IMG/VR virus record: IMGVR_UViG_3300045988_152944
DNA: 64,000 nucleotides
Direction: 5' to 3' (one strand)
Origin: a virus
Shown here: piece by piece, positions 1 through 32,743 of the stretch
Numbering within the stretch: the stretch's first letter is position 1
How the letters are laid out: each line of letters begins with the position of its first letter
Program-made: the position numbers and the translations under genes
Notes under the pieces: generated by a model
What the model saw: only the letters and a program-made list of their open reading frames with translations
What the model was told of the DNA's origin: nothing
Databases searched by the model: none

Positions 1-641
1 CGACTTTCAATATGATGTACATTTAATACATTATCTTTTGATTTACCGTGGCAACATTGGCATTCGTGGTGATCGCGGAATAATACATAGGCTCTCACAT
101 TCCAGAAACCTAATTGCTCGCCCTGTTGATATTCTTTTCCCGATATTTCGGGATTGTTTATCTTCTGGATATCGAATTGAGCGGTTTCGACAATAAGTTT
201 AGTTATCGGTAAAATCGCATACAAGCGTTTTATAACTTGAATATGCGAATTTATCTTTTGTTCAACACTTGGAGCAAGCCATCCTTTGTGTTTTGAATAA
301 ACACGATTGTTAAATCTTGCAGGGCGATATCTCAACCGGTTTCTTCTCGTTCTTCTTGCTTCTCTACGAGATGATAGTTTATTTACAATATCATTACGCA
401 ATTCGACATCAGCTTCATATAGCACTTGTTTGTCCGTTGTGGCAGAAACACCAATATGCTTACTTCCGACATCAATTCCAAGATTCACTTCTTGTGTTTG
501 ATTTTCACAATCGAATAATAACTGAATTGTAAACGGTTCGTATTTTACTATTTTTGCTTTATTTTGTTTTAGCAATTTTCTTGCTTTTGCTTCTTTGCAA
601 GGCATTAATGGTTTGCCTTGTTTGTTTAATACATATACCAT
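1..641 (-). CDS. iscB: IscB-type RNA-guided nuclease, N-terminal 213 aa only (gene runs off the left edge of the window)
   Basis: Absent from the ORF track because it exits the window. Minus-strand translation from ATG at 641 reads MVYVLNKQGKPLMPCKEAKARKLL..NLGIDVGSKHIGVSA..SSRREARRTRRNRLRYRPARF..LIVETAQFD..RDHHECQCCHGKSKDNVLNVHHIES. This gives the PLMP motif, RuvC-I Asp, Arg-rich bridge helix, RuvC-II Glu and the start of an HNH (CxxC..HH). AGGAGG lies at 653-658. Confidence 0.8.
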   Translation of the reverse strand, partial: MVYVLNKQGKPLMPCKEAKARKLLKQNKAKIVKYEPFTIQLLFDCENQTQEVNLGIDVGSKHIGVSATTDKQVLYEADVELRNDIVNKLSSRREARRTRRNRLRYRPARFNNRVYSKHKGWLAPSVEQKINSHIQVIKRLYAILPITKLIVETAQFDIQKINNPEISGKEYQQGEQLGFWNVRAYVLFRDHHECQCCHGKSKDNVLNVHHIES

Positions 642-895
642 TGCTTTTATAGCCTCCTATATGTTAGAGTGGTTACTCCACGACAATGTTATTCAAAGGT
701 TTTACGTATGCAACACTGTTCCTACCCATCAGAACTGTTTAATCACATACCGCAGAGCGTAAGACTGGAGAGTACATCCTACAGTGCCTATATATTCTTT
801 GATAACGTAGTGCTCGAAGCACTGAGTCTGATCAACTAGTGAGCTTGAAGCCCACGCCTATTTATGGGCTGGGTAGTTGACAAAAACTCCTTTTG
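642..895 (-). ncRNA. candidate IscB omega-RNA (scaffold abutting the iscB start; guide expected at the high-coordinate end)
   Basis: About 250 nt with no ORF directly 5' of iscB on the same strand, the canonical omega-RNA position. The minus strand is hairpin-dense (GCCCA-N10-TGGGC; nested TTGAT..AGTGC-TTCGA-GCACT..ATCAA). Ends not determined. Confidence 0.5.
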
Positions 896-907
896 AAAAT
901 AAATTCG

Positions 908-1378
908 TCACTCACTCAAGGCGTCGCCGCCATTGAAAATGAAATGCTCGTAATTTTGTCCCATGCTTTTATAAGATTTTGTGTCCTTATCCCAGCAATA
1001 GGTTGCTTGTTCTGATAATACAAAGTACACACCACCAACATCGCCCACAGCGGGTAGTTGTTCGCGTGTACTCACTTGAACAGCCCCTGCGGTAACGCCC
1101 GAAGCAGAAATAACATTGTTTTCGTCAATTGTAATACCAGAACCAGCGGTTAATTTTTGTTGATACTTTTGTAGCTCCTCGGTTGAATCCAAGGCTATCC
1201 AATTAGAACCGTCTGAACGATATAGACCGTTGTGTTCTAATTTCTCCGTTGTGGCACCAAGATGATGATAGATTTTATTATCGCTTGCGTCCTTCGGAGA
1301 AAAAGAACTCAGATCTTTGTTCTCAATTGGAGTGTTAAGCAGCTGATTATAATCAGCAATCATAATTCTTTGAATCAT
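908..1378 (-). CDS. hypothetical late protein (possibly a tail-fibre or receptor-binding tip)
   Basis: ORF track; ATG at 1376-1378; last gene of the structural operon. No motif recognised. Confidence 0.55.
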   Translation of the reverse strand: MIQRIMIADYNQLLNTPIENKDLSSFSPKDASDNKIYHHLGATTEKLEHNGLYRSDGSNWIALDSTEELQKYQQKLTAGSGITIDENNVISASGVTAGAVQVSTREQLPAVGDVGGVYFVLSEQATYCWDKDTKSYKSMGQNYEHFIFNGGDALSE

Positions 1379-1381
1379 CTT

Positions 1382-1702
1382 TTAACCCTCTGTAATTATA
1401 TAGTAAGCATTTTGAACATATTTTTCCGTGGTCGGTCCCACATACTTAACAAATTTACCAAAAAACTCACTTACGTTCAGCTTGTTCATTTCTTCTTCGG
1501 TTTTGGCTATAATGGGGTTTTCGATCGAACCAAGTTCTCCAGTACCATTAATTACCTTCCCATACGAATCGTAAGCTGAATAACCCTTTAAAACCTTGGC
1601 CGCATCTGCCTGATTGCCAAGAGGGGTTAATACATAATCTCCTGTTGGACTATAATTATCATTAGTTTGGATAATTAACGTCCCCTCGTATTTTTGTCCC
1701 AT
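1382..1702 (-). CDS. small late protein, paralog A (N-terminus shared with 1763..1981)
   Basis: Start moved to the internal ATG at 1702, preceded by CAGGAGGAG. N-terminus is MGQKYEGTLIIQTNDNYSPTGDY. Confidence 0.6.
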   Translation of the reverse strand: MGQKYEGTLIIQTNDNYSPTGDYVLTPLGNQADAAKVLKGYSAYDSYGKVINGTGELGSIENPIIAKTEEEMNKLNVSEFFGKFVKYVGPTTEKYVQNAYYIITEG

Positions 1703-1762
1703 ACTTTCTCCTCCTGCCAAATCACCCATAACCAATAGTGTGGATGCTTTTGCGATAGTTGT

Positions 1763-1981
1763 TTACGCCGCAGGTTCAGGTTCAGGTTCAGGTTCAGGAT
1801 CTTTCTCCGGTGCGACATAAGAACCATTCAATACCACGCCCTGTGCTCCATAAGCTTTTTTGCCTTTCAGGATGTCTTCTTCGGATGCCAGATCAGGTAT
1901 TGACTCCAAACGATATTCGCCCGTAGGACTATAATTATCGTTGGTTTGAATAATCAGTGTGCCTTCATATTTTTGTCCCAT
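1763..1981 (-). CDS. small late protein, paralog B, ending in a (PE)5 repeat
   Basis: ORF track. N-terminus MGQKYEGTLIIQTNDNYSPTGEY matches paralog A over the first 21 aa. C-terminus is EKDPEPEPEPEPAA. Confidence 0.6.
   Translation of the reverse strand: MGQKYEGTLIIQTNDNYSPTGEYRLESIPDLASEEDILKGKKAYGAQGVVLNGSYVAPEKDPEPEPEPEPAA
1771..1798. repeat. (CAGGTT)4 in-frame hexanucleotide repeat encoding (PE)n
   Basis: caggttcaggttcaggttcaggttcagg read directly. Confidence 0.9.
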
Positions 1982-1991
1982 AATTTTCCCC

Positions 1992-2318
1992 TCACTTCTT
2001 ATTTACTTTTTTTGAAAAATCAATAATGAATTCGATTGCGTCGGAAATTTGATCAACCTCATATTGAATACCCAATTCCTTCGCAAAAGAATCCACAGCT
2101 GCCATAACAATTTCTTTTTTTTCTGCCCCAGATTGTCCAGTGGCTTCAGCATCTGCGATAGCCCGTAAAATCATAGGATACAGTTTTTTCCAATTGCCAT
2201 CTTTTGCTAATTCGCCAAACTTCTTTTTCAGTTTTGTAAACATTGCAACCATAGCAGTAATCGCAGCGATGACAATACTGACAAGTGAGACGATTAATCC
2301 AATATCTACATTACTCAT
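1992..2318 (-). CDS. membrane protein, holin-like (N-terminal TM helix plus helical tail, LL-H-type architecture)
   Basis: Start moved to the ATG at 2318, after GAGGTGG. Sequence MSNVDIGLIVSLVSIVIAAITAMVAMFTKLKKK gives one TM segment followed by a charged region. Assignment is by architecture only. Confidence 0.45.
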   Translation of the reverse strand: MSNVDIGLIVSLVSIVIAAITAMVAMFTKLKKKFGELAKDGNWKKLYPMILRAIADAEATGQSGAEKKEIVMAAVDSFAKELGIQYEVDQISDAIEFIIDFSKKVNKK

Positions 2319-2460
2319 GGATTCCACCTCGTTAAATAAAATGATATTTTTATTTGAACCCACACACTGTGGGATTATTTTCGATTTTAATAGACAAGTG
2401 TCTATTTGTAAAAAAGAAAATTGGGGCCATACATAAATGTACGACCCCAAAACCTTTTAA

Positions 2461-6909: not shown

Positions 6910-7576
6910 TTGCTCCTGACCACAAATCCCATGACAGCTTCTGTGTCAAATCATTTAACCCTTCACGAATATTTTGGTACCACTCGGTTTTGGCTCTTAC
7001 AGAGTTGGCCGGAGAATGCAATTTGAAATCTGTATCAGTTAAAATATTGCGAATATCTAACATGAAATTCTTTTCATTCTCAGCCCACCCTAAAAGCAAA
7101 CAGTGTGCTAAAATATCTTTCGTACGCGATTCTATAAACGCAGACGAAATATTTGACGAAAATCCTGTAAAATCTGCAGCGAACTCGCCGGCATAATACC
7201 ATTCAACCGAACATGGTGTTTCGTTTGGAACATCACGCGAGAATGTCACGGTATTGGTTTCGGGATTGTATTCCGCCAGTGGATCGGCTGTTTTTCCAAT
7301 GAAAAAACTCATTACTGCATTATCCAGCGGAGTCGTAGACAAAGTATAACTAGCACCACCGTTGCCGTCAAAAACCTCTAACTTGCCTTGGGCATCTGTA
7401 TAATTAGAAAACCTGGAGGAAACCGTTGTGGGATTTGCAAACATCCCTAAACCGTTAATCAAGTATGGTCTCATTGTTTTTGAAAATTCAACAGGGTTGA
7501 GTTCATAAGCACGTAAAATATCGGGGTCATCGAATAAATTCACCGCGCGATTAAAAATATCTTCAAATAGAATCAT
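6884..7576 (-). CDS. hypothetical head/neck protein
   Basis: ORF track; ATG at 7574-7576. Confidence 0.55.
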   Translation of the reverse strand: MILFEDIFNRAVNLFDDPDILRAYELNPVEFSKTMRPYLINGLGMFANPTTVSSRFSNYTDAQGKLEVFDGNGGASYTLSTTPLDNAVMSFFIGKTADPLAEYNPETNTVTFSRDVPNETPCSVEWYYAGEFAADFTGFSSNISSAFIESRTKDILAHCLLLGWAENEKNFMLDIRNILTDTDFKLHSPANSVRAKTEWYQNIREGLNDLTQKLSWDLWSGAIGGRQIGK

Positions 7577-12822: not shown

Positions 12823-14781
12823 TTAAGTTTCACTGTGCTCTTCAAGATACGTCTCTCGACACTCGTCACATAGAACATCGTCGTCGTCATCTAGTTCTGC
12901 CCCGCAAATTGCACACCGTTTTGCGGCATATACATCTTTGTTTTCACTTGTATTTTCACCTTTCTCGCGTGACGCAGCAGTTTCATCAGACTCTATATCT
13001 TCGTCTTCTAATGCAGGACGACCAACTTTCTTAATTGAACCGTCTTCGTTAGTGTTTGAATCGGCTGACTTCGTTTGTTGTGCGCTTAACTTTGAAGCCG
13101 CAACTTGAGTAAGCGTAGTCAAGTTATTATAAAACCCGATTGCATCTAAATACAACTCGGCAGCCTTAGAATCTTTAACCGTAATGTCCTCATAAGCAAG
13201 CAATTTAGGCACAAGTCCCTTCATACCTGCGGTGACAAGCTCTTTAAGATATTTCTTCTGATTTTGTTCAGAGAAAATATCCCCAAAGATGTCCACTTTC
13301 CATTTATAATCGGCACCTATACATTCTTGGACAATATTGTTAAGTGCTGATTTAAACTGTTTCACCACAAAATCATATTGAGCCGCCGAAAGCATATTAG
13401 CAGTTTTTACCTGCGCAATGCTCGGTTTTTCGGTAGCGATAATATTGCCACCTTCGCCCGCGACACTAATAAAGTTTGAAACCGCTTTAGTCTTAATGTC
13501 ACTACTATTAGGAACGTTGTTAAGGCTTTGTAATTTTAAATTCTTCAACGGCGCAAAGAACGCTTCCGTATTGGTGCTCGTCATACTGTTAAACAAGTTT
13601 TGGAATTTTAAAACCGTTTCAGGGTTCATTGCCGTCTGATCACGACCAGTTGAAGGGTTAGGAATCAGCTCAATTTCGCCCGTCAGTAGCGACGTCAAGG
13701 GCGTACTAGCAATAAGCCCTGCCAGTACCGAGTAATCCGTCAATTCTTGCAAATCCATAAAGAGACCTGCTGTATCAGGCGCTGCGGTAGCTGTAGAGGT
13801 GTCGCTACAGAAAGTATAACACAAATCTTGAGGTAATTGGACCCAGAACATATATGTCCTTTTTTCGGTCCTCTCTAGCAATGTGTCATAAGAATTACCA
13901 TCATCATCTACGAACGCATAATTGGCCGCTTTCGCAATGTCCAATTTGTATGACTTTTTCTTAGGATCGAAGACTGCAATTTTATTGTTGATCATATCAC
14001 TCCACACTCTTTGAATAAAAGCAGGGTATTGATCAGGAACAAATGCTGGATTCATAAAGACCATTAAATTAAAACTTGCTACAAAACCATGTTCCCCAAT
14101 TGCCGTAAGTTTGACAAATTGTGGCGGAAGTTTTTGCAACGCCGCATAATCTACAATCTTTTTACCACCTTTTTTTGTCACATGACTACGCAACAAATAA
14201 CTCGGCTTACCTTCGCGTTTCACTTCAATCGCAATGCGTTTAAAAGTGTTCACTATATCGAATTTTTCGAGCCACTCGTCCACAAAGTCGTCATCTTTTT
14301 TGAATTTTTCCGTTTTATATTCAGATGCTTCTAAAAAAGGCGGATATTTAACATACTTCATTAGAGGGATATCGCCCGCTTGACGAAGTATTTTATAATA
14401 CAAATACTGGCTTGACGACAATGAAGCCGCTGCCCCACGAATATCTTCCTCGTGGAATTGAGGATTTTTTAACGCATTGATAATACTATCTTTGCTCATC
14501 TCAATTGGCAGACCTGCCAACGTCTTCAATCGTGTATTTTGTAAAAATGGATTATATTGATTTAAATTATAAATACCTTGACCAAGAACACTGTTGGAAT
14601 CAACATCTCCTAAAAACCGATTAAAGAAATCCGTGCATCCTTGCAACACATCTTTAACTTCGGCCCCAGCGTCTCCTGTCGTCATCAACAACTTGGAGTC
14701 TTGCGGTTGTTCTTGTTCTGTAATGGGAATTTGTTTCTTTGGACGGCCACCTTTGTTTGTGGTCTTATTGGCTTCACCCAT
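12823..14781 (-). CDS. portal protein (putative) with a C-terminal CxxC-N10-CxxC zinc ribbon
   Basis: 652 aa, downstream of the large terminase. C-terminus is CAICGAELDDDDDVLCDEC. Confidence 0.5.
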   Translation of the reverse strand: MGEANKTTNKGGRPKKQIPITEQEQPQDSKLLMTTGDAGAEVKDVLQGCTDFFNRFLGDVDSNSVLGQGIYNLNQYNPFLQNTRLKTLAGLPIEMSKDSIINALKNPQFHEEDIRGAAASLSSSQYLYYKILRQAGDIPLMKYVKYPPFLEASEYKTEKFKKDDDFVDEWLEKFDIVNTFKRIAIEVKREGKPSYLLRSHVTKKGGKKIVDYAALQKLPPQFVKLTAIGEHGFVASFNLMVFMNPAFVPDQYPAFIQRVWSDMINNKIAVFDPKKKSYKLDIAKAANYAFVDDDGNSYDTLLERTEKRTYMFWVQLPQDLCYTFCSDTSTATAAPDTAGLFMDLQELTDYSVLAGLIASTPLTSLLTGEIELIPNPSTGRDQTAMNPETVLKFQNLFNSMTSTNTEAFFAPLKNLKLQSLNNVPNSSDIKTKAVSNFISVAGEGGNIIATEKPSIAQVKTANMLSAAQYDFVVKQFKSALNNIVQECIGADYKWKVDIFGDIFSEQNQKKYLKELVTAGMKGLVPKLLAYEDITVKDSKAAELYLDAIGFYNNLTTLTQVAASKLSAQQTKSADSNTNEDGSIKKVGRPALEDEDIESDETAASREKGENTSENKDVYAAKRCAICGAELDDDDDVLCDECRETYLEEHSET

Positions 14782-15207: not shown

Positions 15208-17079
15208 CTATCTTCGCCGCCCAAATGGATTAGTGAATCCATTAAACGGATTGGCGCTTTGTCTTTGCTTGAATCCTTGAGCAATTCGATTACTAAACAA
15301 AACATCCATATTTGTAGTTGGTTCGGCTGAACCTAAAATTTCTTCTCTTCGCAATTGTGCCAAGTGATGCGCCGCCAACACACAGGTGTAACATCTATCG
15401 TCGTGTAGCTTCCTGGATTTTTCTGGCGGCAAACCGTATTTCACATCGCCGCTAGGTGTTTTTGTTTTTACAATTGCTACAAGTTCTTCTTTCATAAGAT
15501 CAATTTCAAGTAGTGCTCGCAATTCTTCTTTTGAAAGTTCGTATTTTTCCCCATCTTTTTCCCAAACTCCGCGTTTGGGTACCGGCATTGGGAAAATTAA
15601 ATAATCGTTTATGATCATTTCTGCACATTCACTAAACATTGTTGTGCGCCACTTGCGCGGCTCAATGATTCGACAAACATCCTTAGCTTGTCTGAATTTT
15701 TCTGCCTGTTCTTTAGCTGTATCATCAGTTAAATCGATAATACCCGCGTGCTCGACCCCATCACGATCTGTCCAAGGAAGCATTAGATTGTCTGCATAAC
15801 TACGACCACCACCCCCAGAACCAGCGTCAACATAAAACATAACGTTTTCGTACTCGGGTGATTTCCCGTTATATGCTACAATGAGTTTGCGAATCCACTC
15901 TAATTGTTCGGGAGAACGTAAAGGCTTCTTATCGCCGTTTGGTAATTTTTCGATAAGGTTAATACCATTAACAATTTTACCCATCCATCCGCGTTTTTTG
16001 TCTTTCCAATATTCAACAATAAGCACAAAACTGTTGTCTTGTTGCAATGCGGGGTCAAAAAATAAACCATAATGGTGTTCTGGACCTTCTGATTTAAAGA
16101 TTGGTAAATAGTCTTGTTCGTTTCGTAAAATATCTTGTCGTTTTACTAACGCGTCAATACCACCCGTGTTATCGAATATGTTATAATACTCGCGCATTGC
16201 TCGAGACTCGTTGCTTTTTAATGCGTCATCGATCTCACTTTGTTTAAGCAATGGTGACATTAATTTTCCGTTGAGTTTCGGTGCAAGCGGAATATCACAA
16301 TTAATATCTGCACAAAAATATCCAGGTATACCCATCATCATATTGGTGGCACAAAGTTTATACATGGACCACAAATGGGTATTGATGTCTTCAGCTGACG
16401 ACGAGTAAATACACTGTGTTGGTATATCCTTTGGATAAACCGACGCATCAAAACCAGAGCCTGTTTTAAAATCACGGTTTTGCGCTGTAAAAGGTTCTGT
16501 TAAATCGAAAAAGGCTTGTGGAATCTTGCCGGCCTCGTCGTAGAAGTTAATATTAGAACGAACACCGACAACAGTCTCTGGTTTACCTACAAGCGCCCTA
16601 ATACGCGAACCGTTATAGAGATTACACTCATAACCCTTTTGGCTATGGGTAAACCCGTCGGTATTAGCATTGCTCTTGATGAGTTCATCAAAAAACACAT
16701 CTGTCGTGTTCAACAATGAAGCAATATTCTTTTTTGCAATATCTTCGATTTTCATAAAGGTGTCAAAAGACTGACGCCCCGAAACGTTCATGATATTTAT
16801 TTTAAATTGTGGGAACAAAACAGCCTTCGCCATTAAATACACCGCTCCCAAAAATGTTTTACCCGCGTTTCGTGAACATACCCAAGCGGCTTTTTCTGCC
16901 GTCCAGGTGCCCATAATAATCCACCGCTGATAATCCAACAATTGTATTCCAAAAATTTTTTCAATAAATCGAGTGGGATGCTTGCGGCCCCATTGAATTA
17001 ACCGATTATATCTTTCAAAACTTTCTTGTTTGCGAATATTTACTTCGTTATCTGTGAGATTCCCATAGACTGAAATCAA
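15208..17079 (-). CDS. terL: terminase large subunit
   Basis: 623 aa with a Walker A-like CSRNAGKTF near the N-terminus. The TTG start overlaps the upstream stop (TTGA). Position is upstream of the portal gene. Confidence 0.7.
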   Translation of the reverse strand: MISVYGNLTDNEVNIRKQESFERYNRLIQWGRKHPTRFIEKIFGIQLLDYQRWIIMGTWTAEKAAWVCSRNAGKTFLGAVYLMAKAVLFPQFKINIMNVSGRQSFDTFMKIEDIAKKNIASLLNTTDVFFDELIKSNANTDGFTHSQKGYECNLYNGSRIRALVGKPETVVGVRSNINFYDEAGKIPQAFFDLTEPFTAQNRDFKTGSGFDASVYPKDIPTQCIYSSSAEDINTHLWSMYKLCATNMMMGIPGYFCADINCDIPLAPKLNGKLMSPLLKQSEIDDALKSNESRAMREYYNIFDNTGGIDALVKRQDILRNEQDYLPIFKSEGPEHHYGLFFDPALQQDNSFVLIVEYWKDKKRGWMGKIVNGINLIEKLPNGDKKPLRSPEQLEWIRKLIVAYNGKSPEYENVMFYVDAGSGGGGRSYADNLMLPWTDRDGVEHAGIIDLTDDTAKEQAEKFRQAKDVCRIIEPRKWRTTMFSECAEMIINDYLIFPMPVPKRGVWEKDGEKYELSKEELRALLEIDLMKEELVAIVKTKTPSGDVKYGLPPEKSRKLHDDRCYTCVLAAHHLAQLRREEILGSAEPTTNMDVLFSNRIAQGFKQRQSANPFNGFTNPFGRRR

Positions 17080-18251
17080 GTGCTACTCTCCTGAAGCTCA
17101 GGAGCAAGCAGTTCCTCTATTTCTTCTGAAGGAATTCCTTTGCGTTTATATTCTTTAATAAGTTCAGCAATCAACTCTTGTTTACGCAAATATTCTTTAC
17201 ACATTCGCAAAGCCTCTTCCGCCTGCTTACGCGCCGCAATCTCTCTGCGTACAACCATTGCTTGTTCCTCAACCATTTGAGCGTAGTCAGAATCTGACAA
17301 TCTCAACTGTGCCATAATTGATTTTGCACTAATATCAGAACACTGTTGGATGCTTGAACTTGTCTCAATATCGTAAAGATTGGTTTTGCCATCGTCATAG
17401 TTGGTCTCTTCCATGTCACGCATAATACCTGACAGCGTACCAGCACCTCGACTCTTGGAGTTAGCATATTTTGCCGACAATCCGTGGTCTTTACATAACA
17501 TTGAAATATTTTTATTAACATCTGATTTCATTTTTCGCAAAACTTCCAAGTCTTTGGCGTTTTTTACGATGTCGTCAGGTGTTATAGATAATTTTGCAAT
17601 CGCCAAATCCAATCGGTCAATTTCCTCATAGTTAGTAACTATTTCAATTGCCGCTCTTTGACGCACCAAGTCATTATTTAAAGTCGGATCAATCATTTGG
17701 CTGAGTGAACGATACAACATTGAACGTTGTGATATAGGTTTAGATTCAAACGGGTCGTAACCAAAACTTTTTTTAATATCATTACGATTTTGTTTATCAT
17801 CTTCCGTAAGCTCGTCTTCACCCTCTTTGAAACTAGCCATCTTTATAAATACTGACCGGCTTAACTGTTTGCAAAAAGATTTATTACAATATTCTTCGTT
17901 TGTAAACAGAATCTCTAGATATTTATCTGGCATTATTTCAGTCGCATCCAATGATGTTGCCACACTTGACGCAAGTAAATCATCATAATACCAGTCATTG
18001 ATTGCGCAGAGCTGGAAAAGTGCCTCAAGATGGTCGTTTTCACATTCTGCTAATATTTTATTATATAATGCACGCGTACATTCTTTACATAATAAAGATT
18101 TGTGCTCTTTATCTTTCACGGTTCGAAGTGCGGATATTGTCCCATTGCTACCCCAAAATTCTTCGGGGTCCAGACTAGTCTTACATCCGACACAATATAA
18201 CTTTTGGGCTATTGTGCCAAAAGCTGATAAAATCTTCCTTTCAGTGGCCAT
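17076..18251 (-). CDS. terminase small subunit-like protein with an N-terminal zinc ribbon
   Basis: Start moved to the ATG at 18251 (AAGGAGG upstream). Translationally coupled to terL. Contains CVGCK..N33..CKEC. The call is by position only. Confidence 0.4.
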   Translation of the reverse strand: MATERKILSAFGTIAQKLYCVGCKTSLDPEEFWGSNGTISALRTVKDKEHKSLLCKECTRALYNKILAECENDHLEALFQLCAINDWYYDDLLASSVATSLDATEIMPDKYLEILFTNEEYCNKSFCKQLSRSVFIKMASFKEGEDELTEDDKQNRNDIKKSFGYDPFESKPISQRSMLYRSLSQMIDPTLNNDLVRQRAAIEIVTNYEEIDRLDLAIAKLSITPDDIVKNAKDLEVLRKMKSDVNKNISMLCKDHGLSAKYANSKSRGAGTLSGIMRDMEETNYDDGKTNLYDIETSSSIQQCSDISAKSIMAQLRLSDSDYAQMVEEQAMVVRREIAARKQAEEALRMCKEYLRKQELIAELIKEYKRKGIPSEEIEELLAPELQESST

Positions 18252-18332
18252 AAGCCCTCCTTGTGATCTACACACAACCACTCAAAAAAGCCCCCACAAC
18301 AGCGGAGGCTCTTTGAACAATATATCCTTGAA

Positions 18333-19568
18333 TTATTCCTGAATGTCTAAGTTAATACTATGATGCAACACGTTGTCACCATCAAAGATTAACAGGGTTT
18401 GGCCTGGTTTGCCAAACAGGCGTTTGCTAAACGCATATTGATCTACGCCAACAATACTGCCATTTACATAAACTTTGAAATTGTTGAACGTTTTAAGTTT
18501 TTCACAATGATAATGGCCGACAAAAGCATAATCTACCACTATCCCAGTGTAAGCAGTCATATTTTGGAAAAGCGTTGTAATATTATCATGGTGCCCATGA
18601 ACAAACACGCCGGTCTTCCCGTTTTGGAAATTAATCATACCAATTTCCTGATCGAGAACATTTTCCTCAAAAGTAATGTTCGTGTCTCTCAACCTTTCTT
18701 TTAAATAGAAAGTAATAAGCTTACCATAATTTTCAGCCTCAATACTTTCTTTAAGAGAAGGCGTCATTCGTGAATGATTATCGGTAACAGAATAATATCT
18801 CACATCTGGTGCAGCAGCCTGCAGTTGATTGAGCGTGTCTGCAATAAGCTCAGATGCAACCATGATTTGTTCAACAACATCGATTTGTTGCTCCAATCTT
18901 GCACTTGTGTGAATATGCCCTTGGCAATAATCACCAAGTCCTAAAATATTTAATCTTTGAACATTGTTGTTTACACAATATCTAATTACATCTTGGATTA
19001 GTTTATTTACTCTTTTGCGAGCAATAGTAATATTATATTTATTATAATAATTATCAATCTCTACCCCAATATGTAAGTCCGACAACATTAAAACCGCTTC
19101 TGTGTAAGTATTTCCAACCGGATGATACACAACTTTGGGAAGTTTGGTAATATCCACAACCAACTCTTTCATCAAAGCTTTAAAATCATCCAAACGCGCT
19201 TCTTCTCTCATCATTCTTCGATAAGCATTTAAAGAATCGCGTGTTTTTACTTGTTGTTTATACAAATCTTGAATTTGTCCTTGGATTTCGTCTTCCATTT
19301 CTTGGGTAGACAAATCTTCAACTGTTTTATTAGATAATAATTTTGAATTTCGAGGTAATTCGCCGGTGCGTGCAAGTTTTTGCTTTACCCAACAACGATA
19401 GTTTTCACCCGTTGTAAAAGGCATTCCTAACATCTCGTTCAGGGCACTCCAGTTTTTTACTCCCAATGGTAACTCTTTATGGGTTACCCCTATTTCAAAC
19501 AAATCGTCCTCAGTTAAGTTTTCTTCATTAAACTTTTTGAGGAACTCTAAAAAGTCGGTTTGAGTCAT
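18333..19568 (-). CDS. calcineurin-like metallophosphoesterase
   Basis: Motifs LSDLHIG, GLGDYCQG, GHHDN and VGHYH appear in canonical order. Confidence 0.65.
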   Translation of the reverse strand: MTQTDFLEFLKKFNEENLTEDDLFEIGVTHKELPLGVKNWSALNEMLGMPFTTGENYRCWVKQKLARTGELPRNSKLLSNKTVEDLSTQEMEDEIQGQIQDLYKQQVKTRDSLNAYRRMMREEARLDDFKALMKELVVDITKLPKVVYHPVGNTYTEAVLMLSDLHIGVEIDNYYNKYNITIARKRVNKLIQDVIRYCVNNNVQRLNILGLGDYCQGHIHTSARLEQQIDVVEQIMVASELIADTLNQLQAAAPDVRYYSVTDNHSRMTPSLKESIEAENYGKLITFYLKERLRDTNITFEENVLDQEIGMINFQNGKTGVFVHGHHDNITTLFQNMTAYTGIVVDYAFVGHYHCEKLKTFNNFKVYVNGSIVGVDQYAFSKRLFGKPGQTLLIFDGDNVLHHSINLDIQE

Positions 19569-19578
19569 GTATTTCTCC

Positions 19579-19760
19579 TTTTGCTTCTAGATAGTTCATT
19601 GAACTTCTCACGACTAAAGTCGTGAGATTCTTGGGAACTTCCGACCACTGCCGGAATATTTACCAAGCTAACCCCGTCGTCCCAACGGTTGTTTATATTT
19701 AGGCTAATTGTTTAAGCCCTTCATTAAGAATATTTATCGCCGCATTAACATCTCTATCAT
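19579..19760 (-). ncRNA. candidate TnpB omega/reRNA (overlaps the tnpB 3' end, extends about 100 nt downstream; guide expected at the low-coordinate end)
   Basis: Canonical position for a TnpB guide RNA. Hairpin CTCACGAC-TAAA-GTCGTGAG at 19607..19626. GTTCAA at 19599..19604 resembles the IS605-family TCAA right-end motif. Ends are approximate. Confidence 0.5.
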
Positions 19761-20796
19761 GATGAGTGTGACAAACGGGGCAATCCCATTCTCTGACTTT
19801 TAGGTCTTTTGTCTCAGTGTTCTTATATCCACAAACGCTACAAGTCTGCGAACTCGGGAAGAATTTGTCAACTTTAATAACCATTCTTCCATACCAACGT
19901 GCTTTATACTCCAACTCTCTTACAAATTCTGACCAAGAAACATCATTGATTGCTTGCGCGAGTTTGTGATTTTTAACCATATTTTTTATTTGCAAATCTT
20001 CAAGACAAATCACATCATTTTCTCGAATGATAACTGTTGAGAGTTTTTGTAGAAAATCTTTACGTTGATTTGAAATTTTCTCATGCAATCTCGCGACTTT
20101 TATTCTTGCTTTGTTACGGTTAGAACCATCTTTTGATTTTCGAGATAATTCTTTTTGTAACTTTGCAAGTTTATTTAACGAGTTTTTGAGATATTTCGGA
20201 TTATTGACAACCTCACCATCGCTCGTGATACAAAACTCTTTAAGACCCAGGTCTATGCCGACCACATTGTTTGTAATCGGCAATGGTTGTATATCCACAT
20301 CCACACAGCACAACGAAACGTAGTATTTTCCGCTGGGCTCTTGTGAAACCGTCGCGTTTACTATTCTACCTTGTGGTACCAACTTGTTTTTCGTTTTTAC
20401 CAATCCAAGTTTTGGAAGTTGAATGTAACCGCCAAGATATTTTATGGTGCCATTCCTATATTTAGAGTTGTAAGAATATTTATGAGTTTTCTTACTTTTG
20501 AAATTTGGAAACCCAGCGTGTTCTTTAAAGAACTTTTTATAAGCATTGTCTAAATCTTTGAGAGAAGATTGAAGAGCAGTGGAATCAACTTCTGTAAGCC
20601 ATTCAAGTTCAGCTTTTAGTTTAGTCATCGCTTTCGAACATTGAACGTAAGTTATATTTTTCTTTTCGGTTTTATATAATTCAATCTTTTCAGCAAGATA
20701 CTTGTTATATACAAATCGGCAACAACCAAATGTTTTTGCAATTATTTCTTTCTGCTTTTCGTTTGGATATATACGATATTTATAAGATTTTTCCAC
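19699..20796 (-). CDS. tnpB: TnpB RNA-guided endonuclease (IS605 OrfB family)
   Basis: [16 protein letters not shown]-terminus; RuvC-I GIDLGLK; RuvC-II E in ICLEDL; zinc finger CSVCGY..CPVCH; Ruv[14 protein letters not shown]. The start is GTG with AAAGGAGG upstream. Confidence 0.9.
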
Positions 20797-20888
20797 ACTC
20801 TTTACCTCCTTTTCTGATTTAATAAAACTATTATTTTACTCTTTCCATAGAATATTAGAACACCGTACCTTTCGACATCTACCACAAA

Positions 20889-21641
20889 TCAGATTTTTTT
20901 GGCCTGTCGAGAACGCCGTTTTAACTCGTTTTTACGCTGTGTTAATTCGGTTTTGTAACAATCGGGGCATAAATCCTTATATTTCTTTTTCCCCACGATA
21001 AACCTCTTACCACACGACCTACAAGTGCCACTATATTCGCTAAATTGGAAATCTGTCTTAACCGTTCCTTTATTATCAAAAAAATTTAATTCGATTACGT
21101 TCCCGTAAACAGGTTTCCCGTCTCTGAAATAAGCTTTCTGGTGCATAGTATATAAGTTGTATTGGGCATTCCACTTGTCCATTTGTAAAACTCTATATGG
21201 GCGACGTTGGCGGCGGGTACCTTTAATTAACCCTTCCCAAACTTCTTGGCTACAAAAAAATCCATCTGCTCGTCCAAAAGAGCGTTGGCACTCAACTAAA
21301 ATTCGCAAAAACTCTTTGTATTCTTTGTCTACATCTAAACCTTCAATAAAATTATATTCTTTTGCTGTTAGCCCATAAATATATTTTCTATTAAAGCCAT
21401 AATGTAACGCCTTCTCCCAAAATTTATCAAAATACTCACGAGTTTCTTCTTCACTAAAACACCCTACAACTTGTGGCGACTCTAGTTCCACCCAAATCTT
21501 ATAGGCGGTCTCTTTAGTCACCCCTTGCTCTTGCCAATATTGACAAAGGTGTGTTTGTTCGGTGTTAATACTACGTCGTGTGTTATAATATCCTTGTTTT
21601 AACACTGCTTCTGAATTTTTATTCCAGTCCAAAATTAACAT
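20889..21641 (-). CDS. hypothetical protein with a C-terminal zinc ribbon and basic tail
   Basis: CRSCGKRF..CPDCYK followed by RKNELKRRSRQAKKI; AAAAGGAG upstream. Confidence 0.55.
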   Translation of the reverse strand: MLILDWNKNSEAVLKQGYYNTRRSINTEQTHLCQYWQEQGVTKETAYKIWVELESPQVVGCFSEEETREYFDKFWEKALHYGFNRKYIYGLTAKEYNFIEGLDVDKEYKEFLRILVECQRSFGRADGFFCSQEVWEGLIKGTRRQRRPYRVLQMDKWNAQYNLYTMHQKAYFRDGKPVYGNVIELNFFDNKGTVKTDFQFSEYSGTCRSCGKRFIVGKKKYKDLCPDCYKTELTQRKNELKRRSRQAKKI

Positions 21642-21644
21642 AGG

Positions 21645-22226
21645 TTAACTCCTTTTCGCCACCGGTGTACGCAGTACAGCTAAGAATTCTTGTAAGGAAT
21701 AATCAAGGGCGAACAGCTCATCTTCATTTTCTCGCACGAACACCGGAAGTTTAAAACATAAGATCGGATTTTTACTACCAACCACTCTAAATTCTAATTT
21801 AAGCTTCACGGCCTGATGCACCAATTCTAAAAACTTCTTATGATCCTTCATCCCCAACAATTGCATAATTTGTGGCTCGTCGTATTTGATCCACCCTGAG
21901 TCGTGCCAAGTTGTTTTAGCCACATATATTAACACCCCAAACAAGGCTCGAACTTCCTCATTGCTAATATTTAATAAAAAGTTCCATTCGTCCTCATAAA
22001 CCACGAAAGTTGTGAATGTATTTTTGGTATCAAGAGGGGCCTTTAATAAACAGTCCACAATTTGTTCAAAACATTGGTTATTTAATTCAAACCCGCGTTC
22101 ACACTCAAGGAGAAATTCTCGTATAGAGCCGTCGGTCATACCTTCGGCTCTTAACGAACTAATAATTTTTACAACGCTGCTGCCTTTCTCGATCAATTTG
22201 TTACAAATTTGTTCTTCAACTGTCAT
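21645..22226 (-). CDS. hypothetical protein
   Basis: Start moved to the ATG at 22226, after GGAGGAG. Overlaps the end of RNAP exon 2 by 11 nt. Confidence 0.5.
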   Translation of the reverse strand: MTVEEQICNKLIEKGSSVVKIISSLRAEGMTDGSIREFLLECERGFELNNQCFEQIVDCLLKAPLDTKNTFTTFVVYEDEWNFLLNISNEEVRALFGVLIYVAKTTWHDSGWIKYDEPQIMQLLGMKDHKKFLELVHQAVKLKLEFRVVGSKNPILCFKLPVFVRENEDELFALDYSLQEFLAVLRTPVAKRS

Positions 22227-23456
22227 AGTCACAATCTCCTCCAAATAAGTTATCAGCATCGAAGTCAAAATCTAAATCTTGCCCCAAAATTTCTTCCCAC
22301 GCCGCTTGATTCCAATCGTCATCATCACACAACTCGCTGACGCGATCTTCGTGAATCACTTGTAAAGTGTATCGATTACCAAGGTATTCAAATCCAACTT
22401 CGTTTTTCACGGGAATTTGAACAATTCCACGAGGGATTAAATCTAACACGCTTTCGTCTAAAATGTCCCAAGCAAAATCCCAATTAAACTGTTTGTATTC
22501 TTTTGATAAACAATGGCAGTAATAAAGCAATTCTTTGCCACTGAACGACGAAGACTCAATCGCCTCTTGAATTTCCGTTCTGATAAATGTCATTGCCCCG
22601 AATCTGATTTCATCATATTCGTCACGATTCGGTAAATCAATATTATCAACAATACTCTCCAAGGTTTTTACTTGTTTACGCGCTGTATATTTGCGATACA
22701 AATCTTTAACAATAGCAAACCGTTCTTGATCAAATTCAAAACAATCCTCAAAGGTGGGCAACATACTTACCGCGTTTTTATTGAAATTAATATCAAAATC
22801 GACATTTTCAAATTCCTTACACAACACATTCATTATGCACGGTGCGGTGATTAGTGGCGAATACTTTTGATAACGGCGTACCAAATTCATCTCGTCTTCT
22901 GATTTATTAGGTTTGGTTAAAAGTTTTTTAAATTTAACACCAAACATATTTTTGGACGCCATATTATAACTGTTTTCGTATTGTTTAAATTGTTGATTTA
23001 GTTCGGGATATAAATATCTAAAGAAATATGGTTTTTTAGAAATAACCATCGAGTTTCTTTTATATTTATCAGCCTTAACCGCATCAGTGTCATCATCATT
23101 AATTCGGATGAATTTCTTCCACTCTTTCGGCAACTCCGGCGCGGCTGTTCCTTTAATTCGATCAATTTCTTGACCAACAATTTCTCGAAGTAATTTAATA
23201 CGCAATGTAAGTTCGTCTCTTTGCTCTTTTTGGGTGTCTTTTTGGAAAATTCCCTTCATCGCGTGCATTATTGTTGCGCAGTTAGAAAAACCTCCAACCC
23301 CAGTTCCCAATCCGCGAATATCAGTCGCGATTGAATTCTTTAAACAAATCTTTTGAACCGGCACCGCACCTTTCTCATATGTGATGACATTGTGCCATTT
23401 TTGCGCACCCTTGATAAAGATTTTATTATCCGTGGACATTACTACATCTCCGTCAA
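22216..23456 (-). CDS. YonO/RdRP-like single-chain RNA polymerase, exon 2
   Basis: The frame is open upstream of the annotated Met and reads ..VDGDVVMSTDNK. Joining it to exon 1 gives an in-frame 960-aa protein with a DFDGD motif. Confidence 0.6.
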
Positions 23457-23770
23457 CCTTTACACCCTCGGTTTCCCGATATTTCTTAGGGGAGTAGATT
23501 ATCTCATCAACTCATTTCCTGTTACCGTAGTGAGCTGCTCAGCGCTTTGAATGTTGGAGTTTCACCAACACCCTACTCTACTTGCTTACTTTCAAACATA
23601 TTTCTTGTTTGATACGCGTTCGATAATCGTTACACTTTCCTTATTAAAGGCTTAGCACGGTGTTCCCTACGCAGGTTCACCGTTAGCAGGATTTCATCCC
23701 ACACCTTGGATTTCCAAGTTCACTGAGTTATCATTCGATTGTCACCAACCGACGGACCCTGTATACGTTA
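23457..23770 (-). other. group I intron (314 nt, no internal ORF), probably td-like subgroup IA
   Basis: The 5' exon ends in U, which can wobble-pair in GACU/GGUC. The last intron nucleotide is G. Paired elements include ACGGUG/CACCGU, CCUU-UAAU-AAGG, GUUGG-N7-CCAAC and UCGG-GAAA-CCGA. Splicing restores the reading frame and the catalytic motif. Confidence 0.7.
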
Positions 23771-25412
23771 AGTCACTATCGGAGTGTCGTAATGTTGAAG
23801 TATCATATATACTGTAAATGATTCCACTCTTAATATATTGATACCAATAGTCCATATCTTCGGACGATACTACTTTACAAGGGTTGTGTTCGTGCGAATC
23901 AATCATCGGGCTTCGGCACAGGTCAACACAACCCACACTTCGCTGCCTCCAGAAATTTGAATACACTTGGTCAGGCCCAATTAACCCCACCGGTTCCAAC
24001 CCAAGCGCCGATTGACACTGTGCCACGGGATCAGAAATCATAAAACTATAATTTCCTCTCACCCATATCTTACCAATCTTCGCCTTGTTTATCGTCTCAG
24101 CAATATTGCGATATATTTTCTTCTGTACATGAGCGTCTTCCAACATTATCGGGTTTTTAATAATAGCCCTCAACGCCGTGCTTTGCGCCCCATTATACAA
24201 TTCTTTAAAACTGACTTGTTCACCCTTGCAACCCAACATATACAACATTGTATACAATTGGTCACCTGAACAAATCTTTTTAATCCAATCAATTGTCGGT
24301 TGAATCAATTCCAGAATATCATCCTTATTGATATCCAACACTTGCAGATATTGATAATTGGCCAGCACATATTCGTCATCGTACTTTTTATTATATCTCG
24401 CAACTCCCCACTGAATACCAGCCGCATCTACATACTTTTGATATTCATACCAAGATACATAATATTTATACATCTTGAATTGAGATTCACTCAATATAAC
24501 GTCAATATCCTCCAACCTATGTGAAATTCCCCACCGGTCACGAATTGAATCAATACCGTGTTCAGCTCCAAACTCTCGAAAATCAAACGGGACCAAACAC
24601 CCCTTCACAAAAACGCTACGAACAACGAACGACGACGGCGTATACGATAAATTCATATCTTCTGCCCACAGTGCCGCAAACTTAGGATCGACCAATCCCT
24701 GTCCATCAGCGCAATTCAACTCGATGTCCATAGTTCTTTCTTTAATCTGCTTCTTCCCGGTCTCAGGATTAGGGCAAATCCAATCCACCTGTTGGTCCTT
24801 CACCACATTAAAGAAATCCTTAACAACACACACTCTCGGCGTCCTCACCCACATAACACTCGAAAACGCCAACGCAAAATACGCATGATATTTCGCCAAA
24901 TTCATTTCTGAAATCTTGGTGTCCAACCCGCACATCAGATTTTTATACAGGGTGTCATAAAGAGCTTCATTAATAAAGGTAATAGTGTTGCGCCTCATTT
25001 GTCCCGAACCACAACAAAACCTCACATAATGAATACCGTTAACGTCAAATCCGTTCTTGGCCAATTCTTTATATTCTTTTTTGGTCACGACTTCAACGTT
25101 AACAATATCTTTAACAAACAACGCATCTGTCAAAAACCGATTAAGAATACCAGCTTCTTTGGTTCGTCCTTCTCTCTTCGCAGCTCTGATAGCGCGACGA
25201 AATTGTTGGACATCGTTAAAAATCTCTCGATGACTTCTGGTATCATTATAATATTTTCTGATTTGTTGAAAAACCAGATTATCACCAATTGATACCAGTG
25301 CCCCATCGCGAGCTGCCTTAGATTTTGAATAATTAACTATATTTAAGTTGTTCTCTACAATAAAACTAGATTTAAGTTTAAAAACTTGATATAGGTTTTG
25401 TAAATTAGGCAC
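23771..25412 (-). CDS. YonO/RdRP-like single-chain RNA polymerase, exon 1
   Basis: GTG start after AAGAGGAAG. Ends ..CRSPMIDSHEHNPCKVV..TLRHSDSD plus the first nucleotide of the Phe codon. Confidence 0.6.
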
Positions 25413-25414
25413 TC

Positions 25415-25963
25415 TTAATCTTCCTCTTTTTCGCGTTTAATAATATCTAGCAAATCATTCACCGTTTGTGTCAAATCTAAATTTGTCAAAACGTATTTGT
25501 TTTTATATTCCTTCTCGAACTCACAAAACTGGGCGTCTTCCGCAGCCATTCTCTTGTGGACAATTTCAACATCATCGCCTCGTTTCATCAAGAATCCACG
25601 TTGTACATCCGCAGGTACAGAAATCAAAACAGCCACAATTTTTAATGGGTGTTTGTGGAAGTTCCAATACTTCCACAAATCCCCAAGTCCTTTAGGATCG
25701 ATTATATAAAAATCACTATTTAATACTTGCGTAACTGTAGCAAAATATTCCACATCTCCAATTACAGTCTGTGCAATAATATCATCTTTATATTTATCCA
25801 CATCCTCAGGTTGTACAAAAATGTGGGTGTCACCTTCATTAACTCTCTTGGGACGTGTGGTATAAGAACACACTTTCTTCATTCCTGTCAGTTGGCACAC
25901 ACGATCAACGACCGTATCTTTCCCGGCGCCACTTCTGCCAAGTACACAAAATAATGTTTTCAT
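25415..25963 (-). CDS. P-loop nucleoside-monophosphate kinase (guanylate-kinase-like)
   Basis: GRSGAGKDT P-loop and SYTTRPKRVNEGDTHIFV, a GK-type TTRxxR..G..F segment. Confidence 0.6.
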   Translation of the reverse strand: MKTLFCVLGRSGAGKDTVVDRVCQLTGMKKVCSYTTRPKRVNEGDTHIFVQPEDVDKYKDDIIAQTVIGDVEYFATVTQVLNSDFYIIDPKGLGDLWKYWNFHKHPLKIVAVLISVPADVQRGFLMKRGDDVEIVHKRMAAEDAQFCEFEKEYKNKYVLTNLDLTQTVNDLLDIIKREKEED

Positions 25964-25964
25964 T

Positions 25965-26534
25965 TTACTCCTCGATAATCGACGAAGGTTTCCCTACAAG
26001 TTCAGGATAGTTGGCATAAAACTTTACCAACGCTTCCAAGTCTTTAAAGTTATGTATGATATAAAAATCATCCTCATTACCCTCAACATGATTACGTTGA
26101 TGGTTAACGTCGCCAGTAAACAACACAACCATATCAGCTAAATAATTAGCACACATACGATAATCGCTACCGACATATATAACCGAATCTCCAAAAAGAC
26201 GAATTTTTTCTATATCCGCTGCTGTTGCTGTTCTATAAGCTTCAGCATAACTTTCAATCTCGATAGTGAGCTTGCAGTTCTCCGCAAGTTCTGTGATGGT
26301 ATCAAGAAAATCTTCCGCACCTTCTCGAATCCACAAGTCGGGCACATTCAGACTTTTGATACAATTAATGATTTCGAAATCATGATCTTGACCACAGAAC
26401 GTTTGGAATTTGTTTTCGTAAAAATCGATTACAGAATAATTAGTGTTGTATTTTTCATTAAGTTTTTTGGTTATTGTCTCCGCACAATTAAAAATTACAT
26501 TGTCTTCTACAATTAGATGTAAGTGTTTGCTCAT
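25965..26534 (-). CDS. hypothetical protein, first gene of the leftward operon
   Basis: ORF track; weak SD. Confidence 0.5.
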   Translation of the reverse strand: MSKHLHLIVEDNVIFNCAETITKKLNEKYNTNYSVIDFYENKFQTFCGQDHDFEIINCIKSLNVPDLWIREGAEDFLDTITELAENCKLTIEIESYAEAYRTATAADIEKIRLFGDSVIYVGSDYRMCANYLADMVVLFTGDVNHQRNHVEGNEDDFYIIHNFKDLEALVKFYANYPELVGKPSSIIEE

Positions 26535-26608
26535 AGTAGTGTAGTTCCTTAGAAGTTATATAGATTCCCAAAGAAAGAGGATATTCTCTTTCTTCTTATT
26601 ATATTTAT

Positions 26609-26649
26609 ATTATAACACATATCATATTTAATATCAACCTATGATGACA
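26609..26649 (-). promoter_or_regulatory. sigma-A/sigma-70-type promoter (TGTCA-N7-TTGATA-N17-TATAAT) for the leftward operon
   Basis: -10 at 26609..26614, -35 at 26632..26637, TGTCA at 26645..26649 (minus strand). Confidence 0.7.
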
Positions 26650-26683
26650 TTTTTATAAAATTTTTAACATTTTTTAATTTTTC

Positions 26684-26724
26684 TGTCATTGTAGGTTGAC
26701 TTTTCTTTTCAAAGTTGTTATAAT
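26684..26724 (+). promoter_or_regulatory. promoter TGTCA-N7-TTGACT-N17-TATAAT pointing into the AT core
   Basis: -35 at 26696..26701, -10 at 26719..26724. Confidence 0.7.
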
Positions 26725-26879
26725 TTGGGTGGTGGGCGGGTATAGATAAGAAGATCTTTTTTATTTATATATAAATATATAATATATATTCTATAATTAT
26801 AACATATAATATGTTAAATATATATTAAAATATAATATAATAAAAAATAGTGATCTCATTCTCCCGACCACCCACCCCT

Positions 26880-32104: not shown

Positions 32105-32596
32105 ATGTCTATTAAAATCAATCAAATTGCAGCAACCGCCAACATCATCAACGCTCTCGATGCAATGAAAGCAGACGAGAACATCAGCCTCGGCATCGAA
32201 GAAATCGAGTTTCCTGATGGAAGCAAAGAGAAATTCTATTACAACGGCGAGTCCGACAAACAAGCAGCCGTGCACTTCGCACAGATTTGCATCGATGTTT
32301 GCGCCGGCGACAGCGACAAAGCCAAACGTATGATGGCTTCGTGTTTCAAACTTCTCACTAAAGGCTACAATGTCGACGAAATTGTCCCGTCTGCGGAAAG
32401 CGAAATCAACACCGAAACTTATATTGATTATAAGAAAGGTGTCTTGCTCACGCCGTACGCGTCGGTTGTCGCGTCTCTCACCGAGGATGAACTCAAAGCA
32501 ACAAAGGGCAAAAAGAATCCCCTTACCAAATCACTCTTGCTCGAAAGATCGAGAACTGATTGTTTAGAAGACGCTCTTAAATATTACGAGAGCTGA
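32105..32596 (+). CDS. hypothetical protein
   Basis: AAAGGAGG upstream. Confidence 0.6.
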   Translation: MSIKINQIAATANIINALDAMKADENISLGIEEIEFPDGSKEKFYYNGESDKQAAVHFAQICIDVCAGDSDKAKRMMASCFKLLTKGYNVDEIVPSAESEINTETYIDYKKGVLLTPYASVVASLTEDELKATKGKKNPLTKSLLLERSRTDCLEDALKYYES

Positions 32597-32743
32597 ACCC
32601 CGCAAGGCCCGCACGAAAGTGTGAACGGCGCAAGCCCGTTGCCCTCTTAGGAGGGTGGCGCTCATGGTGTTCATAATGGCATCATCTTCGTAAAATAAAA
32701 ATCTTGCTAATCGAAGACTAATGGCATAGAAAGGAGAATCATT

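Follow-up and report, generated by a model that had tools for sequence, protein, structure and literature searches.

A Probable IS200/IS605-Type IscB Element and Its Predicted Omega-RNA in the Tail-Fibre Region of an SPbeta-Like Phage

Introduction

IscB is an RNA-guided DNA nuclease ancestral to Cas9. The biochemistry of its family was reportedly established by Altae-Tran and colleagues in 2021, and the HEARO RNA is said to have been described by Weinberg and colleagues in 2010. Here we describe a predicted iscB gene and the predicted omega-RNA in front of it in a 64,000-nucleotide stretch of phage DNA (IMG/VR record IMGVR_UViG_3300045988_152944; the whole stretch is called the window), where both are read from the minus strand and probably belong to a mobile element.

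In the IscB elements studied by Meers et al. (PMC10055086), the scaffold of the omega-RNA derives from the transposon end and the guide lies outside the element; transcription of the RNA must start outside the element, and the genes upstream are biased to the same orientation. The locus in the window shares with the Geobacillus stearothermophilus system (ISGst, IS605-like) an IscB with a HEARO-type omega-RNA, a scaffold from the transposon end, a guide outside the element, a co-oriented upstream gene, no tnpA in the element, and the target-adjacent motif (TAM) TTCAT. It differs in being carried by a phage rather than a bacterial chromosome, in the sequence ATGGA at its own site, and in that a cognate TnpA was not found. 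The residues mutated in the dIscB of Meers et al. (D58/H209/H210; PMC10055086) correspond to the catalytic residues D57/H209/H210 here, at almost identical positions.

OgeuIscB, the structures of which have been solved (7UTN and 7XHT), has the same order of PLMP, RuvC-I, bridge helix, RuvC-II, HNH, and RuvC-III; it is 496 aa long, against ~410–426 aa here, its C-terminal TAM-interacting region is not aligned by sequence, and its TAM, NWRRNA (quoted in PMC12660989), is unlike the ATGA(A/C) of the present elements. Homing endonucleases of phages, whether free-standing or carried by introns (T4 Seg/Mob and I-TevI; PMC13565253), have the same predicted outcome, in that the element-free allele of a co-infecting phage is cut and the element copied in. 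They recognize their target by protein, whereas the IscB element would do so by an RNA guide copied from its flank and, unlike them, can reach new sites via a Y1 transposase. OMEGA nuclease genes of the TnpB type are likewise scattered among some members of a phage group, for example the epsilon crAss-like phages (PMC11054128); TnpB has RuvC only, is Cas12-like, and has its omega-RNA at the 3′ end, and the IscB type found here is much rarer.

Predicted IscB Protein

We hold it to be probable, with good confidence, that positions 1..881 of the window (minus strand) contain the omega-RNA end and the first half of a ~1.5-kb non-autonomous element of the IS200/IS605 type (ISC/OMEGA) in an SPbeta-like phage (Table 1). 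Translation of 641..3 gives 213 codons without a stop, with the IscB motifs KPLMPC, GIDVGS, RREARRTRRNRLRYR, ETAQFD, and CQCCHGKS...NVHH; these codons span the PLMP domain, RuvC-I (GIDVGS, with D57), the arginine-rich bridge helix, RuvC-II (ETAQFD, with E152), and half of the HNH domain, its first (CQCC...NVHH, with H209/H210). The Pfam family RRXRR (PF14239), which spans IscB from PLMP through RuvC-I and the bridge helix to RuvC-II, matches over its whole length (1–174 of 174, E 9.2e-68). An earlier note on this DNA had read the open reading frame (ORF) that begins at 641 and runs off the window as the N-terminus of IscB, and our analysis bears this out, with all of the motifs where the note had placed them.

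The N-terminal fragment has 2870 database homologues, the best of them 91% identical, and nearly all combine RRXRR with HNH. The ratio of nonsynonymous to synonymous substitution rates (dN/dS) between this iscB and its relatives is 0.03–0.13, indicating strong purifying selection on the protein. Related IscBs were collected from 20 IMG/VR phage contigs (11–254 kb), two of which hold two copies each; intact relatives are 406–426 aa long. One of these (L006) is 92% identical to the window protein over the common 213 residues and aligns with the OgeuIscB structures 7UTN/7XHT (phmmer, E ~1e-46) from PLMP through RuvC-III (HYIDARC). Pfam HNH is detected in the full-length relatives L006 and L014, and the relatives extend ~100 residues past RuvC-III. 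They thus carry RuvC-III, HNH, and a C-terminal domain, all three of the parts that the earlier note had regarded as essential to its reading.

An exact search with the insertion junction gave no match in IMG/VR and a single contig (L041) in the metagenome collection. This independent assembly has the same insertion site, is 98.9% identical to the window, and reaches 150 nt further left. IscB can there be read without a stop, and with its HNH complete, as far as residue 263, before the contig ends within iscB. The leftward extension that had been proposed for recovering the full gene reaches as far as the HNH in L041, and the far end of the window's copy was not recovered. Taken together, the motifs, the family match, and the relatives identify the gene, as predicted from its sequence, as an IscB.

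Predicted Omega-RNA

The 266 nt between the iscB ATG and the preceding stop (642..907) contain no co-oriented ORF. A covariance-model search, suggested beforehand as a check on the idea that an omega-RNA is encoded 5′ of iscB, gave a full-length HEARO match on 881..669 that scores 133.4 bits (gathering score 83; E 8.3e-29) and is the sole HEARO match in the 64 kb. HEARO has been identified as the omega-RNA of IscB (PMC10055086; PMC13565253). The match resembles the family in being complete, 50 bits above the gathering score, and directly 5′ of an HNH/RRXRR ORF; nothing significant differs, the first hairpins varying in length among the phage copies.

When the sequences in front of iscB in 20 copies are aligned, they prove conserved from precisely window position 881 onwards, with (G/A)TCAA at the start, and on the 5′ side the copies are unrelated to one another. 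The consensus fold has 56 pairs, 23 of which show compensatory double changes among the 20 copies. The folding energy of the single sequence was not significant against shuffled sequences (z = −1.6). It is thus the covariance model and the covariation, and not the folding energy, that support the structure; of the earlier description of 642..895 as an ORF-free stretch of nested hairpins, the absence of a co-oriented ORF stands, and the hairpins stand on the former evidence and not on the latter. Among the 14 closest copies, the omega-RNA core is 92%–98% identical to the window, against 53%–83% at third codon positions of the adjoining ORF, so that the RNA is under stronger constraint than the synonymous sites of the protein.

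The leader between the Rfam model and the start codon is conserved across the aligned copies and is probably also the 3′ tail of the omega-RNA; RF02033 is without the downstream structural elements of the omega-RNA (Meers et al., PMC10055086). The stretch 5′ of iscB is accordingly best read as the omega-RNA of this IscB, with a putative guide at its 5′ end that lies outside the element.

In the genome collection the omega-RNA core matched one contig only, of 62 kb (L040, CAVKBM010000005.1), which encodes a 426-aa IscB and belongs to a metagenome-assembled genome labelled Bacteroidaceae. Elsewhere the features of the family are Firmicutes-type and SPbeta-like, so it may be a mis-binned phage contig.

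Insertion Site and Putative Guide

The boundary of the element at 881/882 is delimited from both sides: homology to IscB elements elsewhere starts at 880–884, and that to sibling phages whose site is empty stops at 882–887. This omega-RNA end is the “RE” in the TnpA convention of Meers et al. (PMC10055086). The 20 nt upstream of 881 are 5%–55% identical among the 14 closest copies.

A protein identical to the 156-aa product of the upstream gene occurs in 70 blocks of the assembly collection, and eight of these loci were inspected. In every one the site is empty, and a 421-aa Mtd_N (major tropism determinant) gene lies 27 nt after the 156-aa gene, followed by large tail-fibre-like and leucine-rich repeat (LRR) genes and an integrase. 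Comparison with these loci indicates that the operon continues beyond the 156-aa gene and that the element lies inside a tail-fibre module. The earlier note had taken the gene to be the last structural gene, at the distal end of the late operon, and this has to be given up, as Mtd_N and further tail-fibre-like genes follow it in eight of eight siblings; its view that the element is co-oriented with the structural genes is confirmed.

Five of the eight empty sites (L032, L033, L034, L037, and L038) read ...ATTTATTTTCAAAAGGAGTTTTT/ATGGAGAAACAA, against ...ATTTATTTTCAAAAGGAGTTTTT/GTCAACTACCC at the filled site of the window (the slash marks the junction). The putative guide, 897..882, is base for base the sequence that precedes the junction in these five siblings (TTCAAAAGGAGTTTTT/ATGGAG), and no second guide target was found in the window. 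Its length of 16 nt is inferred from characterized IscBs. The comparison with related phages lacking the insertion, which had been recommended, thus defines the element end at 881, the guide, and the position of the TAM, and on this alignment the element sits between the ribosome-binding site and the ATG of the 421-aa Mtd-like tail-fibre gene. The guide lies at the 5′ end and outside the element, as had been expected; it does not abut the stop codon of the 156-aa gene, from which it is 10 nt apart.

Table 1. Features of the IscB locus in the window, and in-frame stops in close copies of iscB
Feature	Position	Strand	Remarks
iscB (predicted), 5′ part	1..641	minus	ATG 641..639; codons 1–213; continues beyond the window
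Leader	642..668	minus	between Rfam model end and start codon; Shine-Dalgarno GGAGG at 657..653
Omega-RNA scaffold (HEARO, predicted)	669..881	minus	Rfam RF02033, whole model 1–211
Element boundary	881..882	minus	881, first element base (omega-RNA end); 882, last phage-flank base
Guide segment (putative)	882..897	minus	TTCAAAAGGAGTTTTT; 16 nt; phage flank including the ribosome-binding site of the displaced downstream gene
Upstream co-oriented phage gene	908..1378	minus	156 aa; stop 910..908; context, outside the element
Stop in iscB, L005	codon 144		TGA; L in intact copies
Stop in iscB, L001	codon 271		TAA; Y in intact copies
Stop in iscB, L009	codon 276		TAA; E in intact copies
Stop in iscB, L013	codon 317		TAA; Q in intact copies
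Stop in iscB, L003	codon 358		TAG; Y in intact copies
Stop in iscB, L010	codon 377		TAA; R in intact copies

Element Ends and Mobility

A complete element with both boundaries is provided by the sibling L005 (96% identical to window 26766..15719), which carries 1516 bp exactly at window 22227/22226. The empty site of the window at this point is GATTGTGACT/ATGACAG (in a longer reading, GGAGGAGATTGTGACT/ATGACAGTTGAAG), and the filled site of L005 is GGAGGCGATTGCGACT/GTCAATTACCC...GGCAAAGTGTT/ATGACAATTGAAG; the comparison gives GACT/element/ATGACA, with no target duplication. In L001 a copy lies at window ~26860, and in other contigs copies are found in unrelated contexts.

The element has no terminal inverted repeats. 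It has imperfect subterminal hairpins that are alike at both ends, CCCAGCCCC-TAAA-GGGGCGTGGG at the omega-RNA end (the first hairpin of the omega-RNA scaffold serves also as this transposon-end hairpin) and CCGCAGCCC-TAAG-GGGCCTGTGG at the far end of the relatives; similar imperfect hairpins on the same strand at both ends are a hallmark of IS200/IS605 ends. At ten loci ATGA(A/C) comes immediately after the far end, ...TT. Read on the strand opposite to iscB, ATGAA is TTCAT, the TAM of both the G. stearothermophilus IscB and its TnpA (Meers et al., PMC10055086).

The ATG of the TAM opens an ORF of 54–526 aa in nine of the ten loci with a recognizable far end (those named are L005, L008, L012, L013, L015, L016, L019, and L020), and the same holds at window 882/881; of all ATGA[AC] sites in the window, only about 8% could plausibly start a gene. 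An element at a start codon separates the downstream gene from its ribosome-binding site. Selection is the simplest explanation of this landing pattern, as judged from the sites, because insertions at intragenic ATGAA would be lost in a densely coding phage.

Proposed Mechanism

The steps proposed here are drawn from the published biochemistry of the family (that of Meers and colleagues in 2023 and, reportedly, of Altae-Tran and colleagues in 2021). Transcription of the late genes upstream would read into the element. No terminator-like site was found between the 156-aa gene and 881, and this, together with the findings of Meers et al. on where the RNA is transcribed from, makes it likely that the RNA arises by read-through of the late genes. 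The transcript would be processed to an omega-RNA of which the 5′ 16 nt are flank, and IscB with this RNA would cut DNA bearing the 16-mer followed by the TAM, that is, the empty site. Such a site would arise by TnpA-mediated excision or arrive with a co-infecting, element-free sibling phage, and recombinational repair from the filled copy would then restore the element or copy it (retention or homing). A Y1 transposase for new insertions would have to act in trans. The far end of the copy in the window would adjoin ...TT/ATGGAGAAACAAATACG, the start of the Mtd-like gene. By analogy with the characterized systems, RNA-guided homing or retention is the likely role of the element.

In L001 (9700..9755) the element lies ~20 nt downstream of a near-consensus sigma-70-type promoter (TTGACA, 17 nt, TATAAT). 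With the promoter in this position, the natural transcript start would give a guide of about the right length without processing.

Alternative Explanations

Several observations weigh against the interpretation as a mobile IS200/IS605-type element. The window ends before the C-terminal half of iscB (with RuvC-III and the TAM-interacting domain) and before the far end of the element, and the TAM at the window's own site is ATGGA rather than the consensus ATGAA. Five relatives (L006, L009, L010, L011, and L018; about 7150..7280 in each) are without a recognizable far-end hairpin or ATGAA junction; these may be truncated, immobilized elements in which omega-RNA and iscB were kept. Searches of the window and of the sibling loci examined, by the HUH/Y1 motif pair and by tblastn with two TnpA sequences, found no TnpA, which agrees with what the earlier note had seen in the window; both are weak tests. 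As iscB lies near tnpA in only ~1.5% of cases (Meers et al., PMC10055086), a missing TnpA is the normal state for iscB.

Finally, six of the 12 closest copies long enough to judge hold one in-frame stop each in an ORF that is otherwise conserved (Table 1). The stops are of three kinds and fall at different positions and residues, as expected of independent nonsense mutations, and they suggest, from the reading frames, repeated recent inactivation of the nuclease in phage genomes. Stop-codon recoding was considered for these “short” iscB genes and rejected, since TGA, TAA, and TAG all occur, at different positions and in place of L, E, R, Q, Y, and Y.

These stops, together with the several relatives that have no conserved far end and the position of the C-terminal half outside the window, would fit a decaying relic, either a dead nuclease with a stop in the unseen half or an element that has lost its far end, whose sole effect is to part the tail-fibre gene from its ribosome-binding site. 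We consider this unlikely for the copy in the window: its 213 visible codons are intact (263 in L041), the protein shows strong purifying selection, the omega-RNA is complete, and the guide is still a perfect match to a circulating empty site. In five sibling contigs the guide matches the junction of ribosome-binding site and ATG of the tail-fibre gene, and a downstream ORF opens at the ATG directly next to nine of ten elements, as it does at the window's site (against ~8% of ATGA[AC] sites that are gene starts). This could instead mean that the phage has co-opted the element, as an RNA-guided weapon or gene drive directed against co-infecting siblings and spreading by homing, with no need of TnpA, or as a control on expression of the Mtd-like receptor-binding gene; homing into co-infecting phages is theoretically possible (2026 review, PMC13565253). 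However, siblings carry the element in different places, and half of the close copies contain a nonsense codon. Both points speak against a fixed beneficial role, and landing at start codons is also expected from purifying selection against intragenic insertions, so that co-option seems to us somewhat less likely again than decay.

Far less probable than either are two readings that concern the protein itself. Thirty-five GenBank phage records label IscB homologues “HNH endonuclease” or “hypothetical protein,” and the HNH motif is present, as it would be in a conventional protein-guided phage HNH endonuclease of the free-standing homing or terminase-assisting kind; but the N-terminal 174 residues are a full RRXRR/RuvC module, the family matches solved IscB structures, a full-length HEARO precedes the gene, and the position is not fixed beside the terminase, and we give this explanation very little credence. 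Least credible is a compact Cas9 (type II) effector of a phage-borne CRISPR system, which would have the RuvC and HNH architecture in common with the gene and could account for weak PDB matches to Cas9d-like proteins. No CRISPR-like array or array-like repeat family was found in the 64-kb window, the ~410-aa protein has its best matches to IscB, the RNA is HEARO, and the guide is flank DNA. The IS200/IS605-type IscB element thus remains our preferred interpretation.

Phage Host and Other Features of the Window

The window encodes a large terminase (15208..17079) and a portal protein (12823..14781), and sibling loci encode the SPbeta-type proteins YonB, YonD, YomU, and YomW and an integrase, with strong ribosome-binding sites; the earlier assignment of the element to a phage is thereby upheld, and the host is an SPbeta-like temperate gut phage. 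The names of the relatives' samples and the faecal phage contigs among the matches indicate that the window probably comes from the human gut. No GenBank phage matched window 1–3000 by megablast, a distant blastn search against GenBank phages gave weak iscB matches only, and the terminase is ~25% identical to Bacillus phage terminases, so the nearest named relatives are distant. A Pfam RdRP match, which represents a YonO-like single-subunit RNA polymerase in the window, had prompted consideration of a crAss-like phage; this identity was dropped in view of the SPbeta-type proteins, integrase, and strong ribosome-binding sites of the siblings.

The YonO-like polymerase gene is split in the window by a 313-nt insertion without an ORF (23457..23769, minus). 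In L001 the gene is uninterrupted and encodes 957 aa; in the window it is broken within the codons for the catalytic D-F-D-G-D. T is the last base of the upstream exon and G that of the insert, a pattern also seen with group I introns; L005 shares the insertion with 97% identity, and an Rfam search with it gave no match.

A second OMEGA element of the window (19599..20821, minus) contains a tnpB gene (19699..20796) for a 365-aa protein with the Pfam domains HTH_OrfB_IS605, OrfB_IS605, and Cas12f1-like TNB. Its 1.2 kb are absent from the siblings L001 and L005, and L033 and L034 have TnpB at another site, between the tube gene and the next gene. The 5′ flank of the window element ends in TTTAT, the TAM reported for GstTnpB2 (PMC10055086).

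A twister-sister ribozyme (RF02681) was identified at 32595..32674 (plus strand), at the 3′ end of an early-region gene, with a match to the full model (64.1 bits against a threshold of 34, E 3e-12). Two small adjacent genes near the iscB locus (1382..1735 and 1763..1981, minus) have a 74-nt stretch in common that is 81% identical, with the same N-terminus MGQKYEGTLIIQTNDNYSPTG, and represent a local duplication in the tail-fibre region. The intergenic motifs ...TATATTATAACACA and TTATAC...N...TTGTCAACATATTTT are repeated upstream of gene blocks (26588, 48291, 50649, 51368, and 61162) and may be phage promoters or operators.

Implications

As a kind, the locus is ordinary: it agrees with the published IscB/OMEGA family in protein and RNA, in the structure of its ends, in its TAM, and in its genetic logic. 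Its setting is uncommon; IscB homologues were found in 35 of 50,697 GenBank phage records, from phages of Ralstonia, Staphylococcus, Clostridium, and cyanobacteria, and no published analysis of IscB elements in phages was found in the literature searched. The natural biology of IscB is known mainly from a few bacterial chromosomes, and the value of the present material lies in unusually complete natural evidence for guide/empty-site matching and for mobility within one phage lineage. As compact proteins of ~410 aa with the TAM ATGAA, these IscBs also add to the candidates for genome editing.

Copying of the element into a co-infecting phage by repair of the cut has been termed “non-restorative homing” and is possible in theory for phages (2026 review, PMC13565253). 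We suggest, as a tentative possibility and with more doubt than confidence, that IscB elements act as RNA-guided gene drives between co-infecting SPbeta-like gut phages of this lineage, the guide in the window being aimed at the junction of ribosome-binding site and ATG in the siblings' Mtd-like gene. If this were true, siblings that are cut would be converted, by homing without TnpA, or eliminated as competitors, and the landing at start codons and the frequent nonsense mutations would reflect a conflict between the drive and the fitness of the phage. With one element at many sites, precise boundaries, filled and empty alleles that circulate together, and a guide identical in every base to the empty allele, these phages are a natural population whose sequences allow a direct reading of the homing model, and phage co-infection is the setting in which RNA-guided homing between genomes, as opposed to restoration after excision, could be measured.

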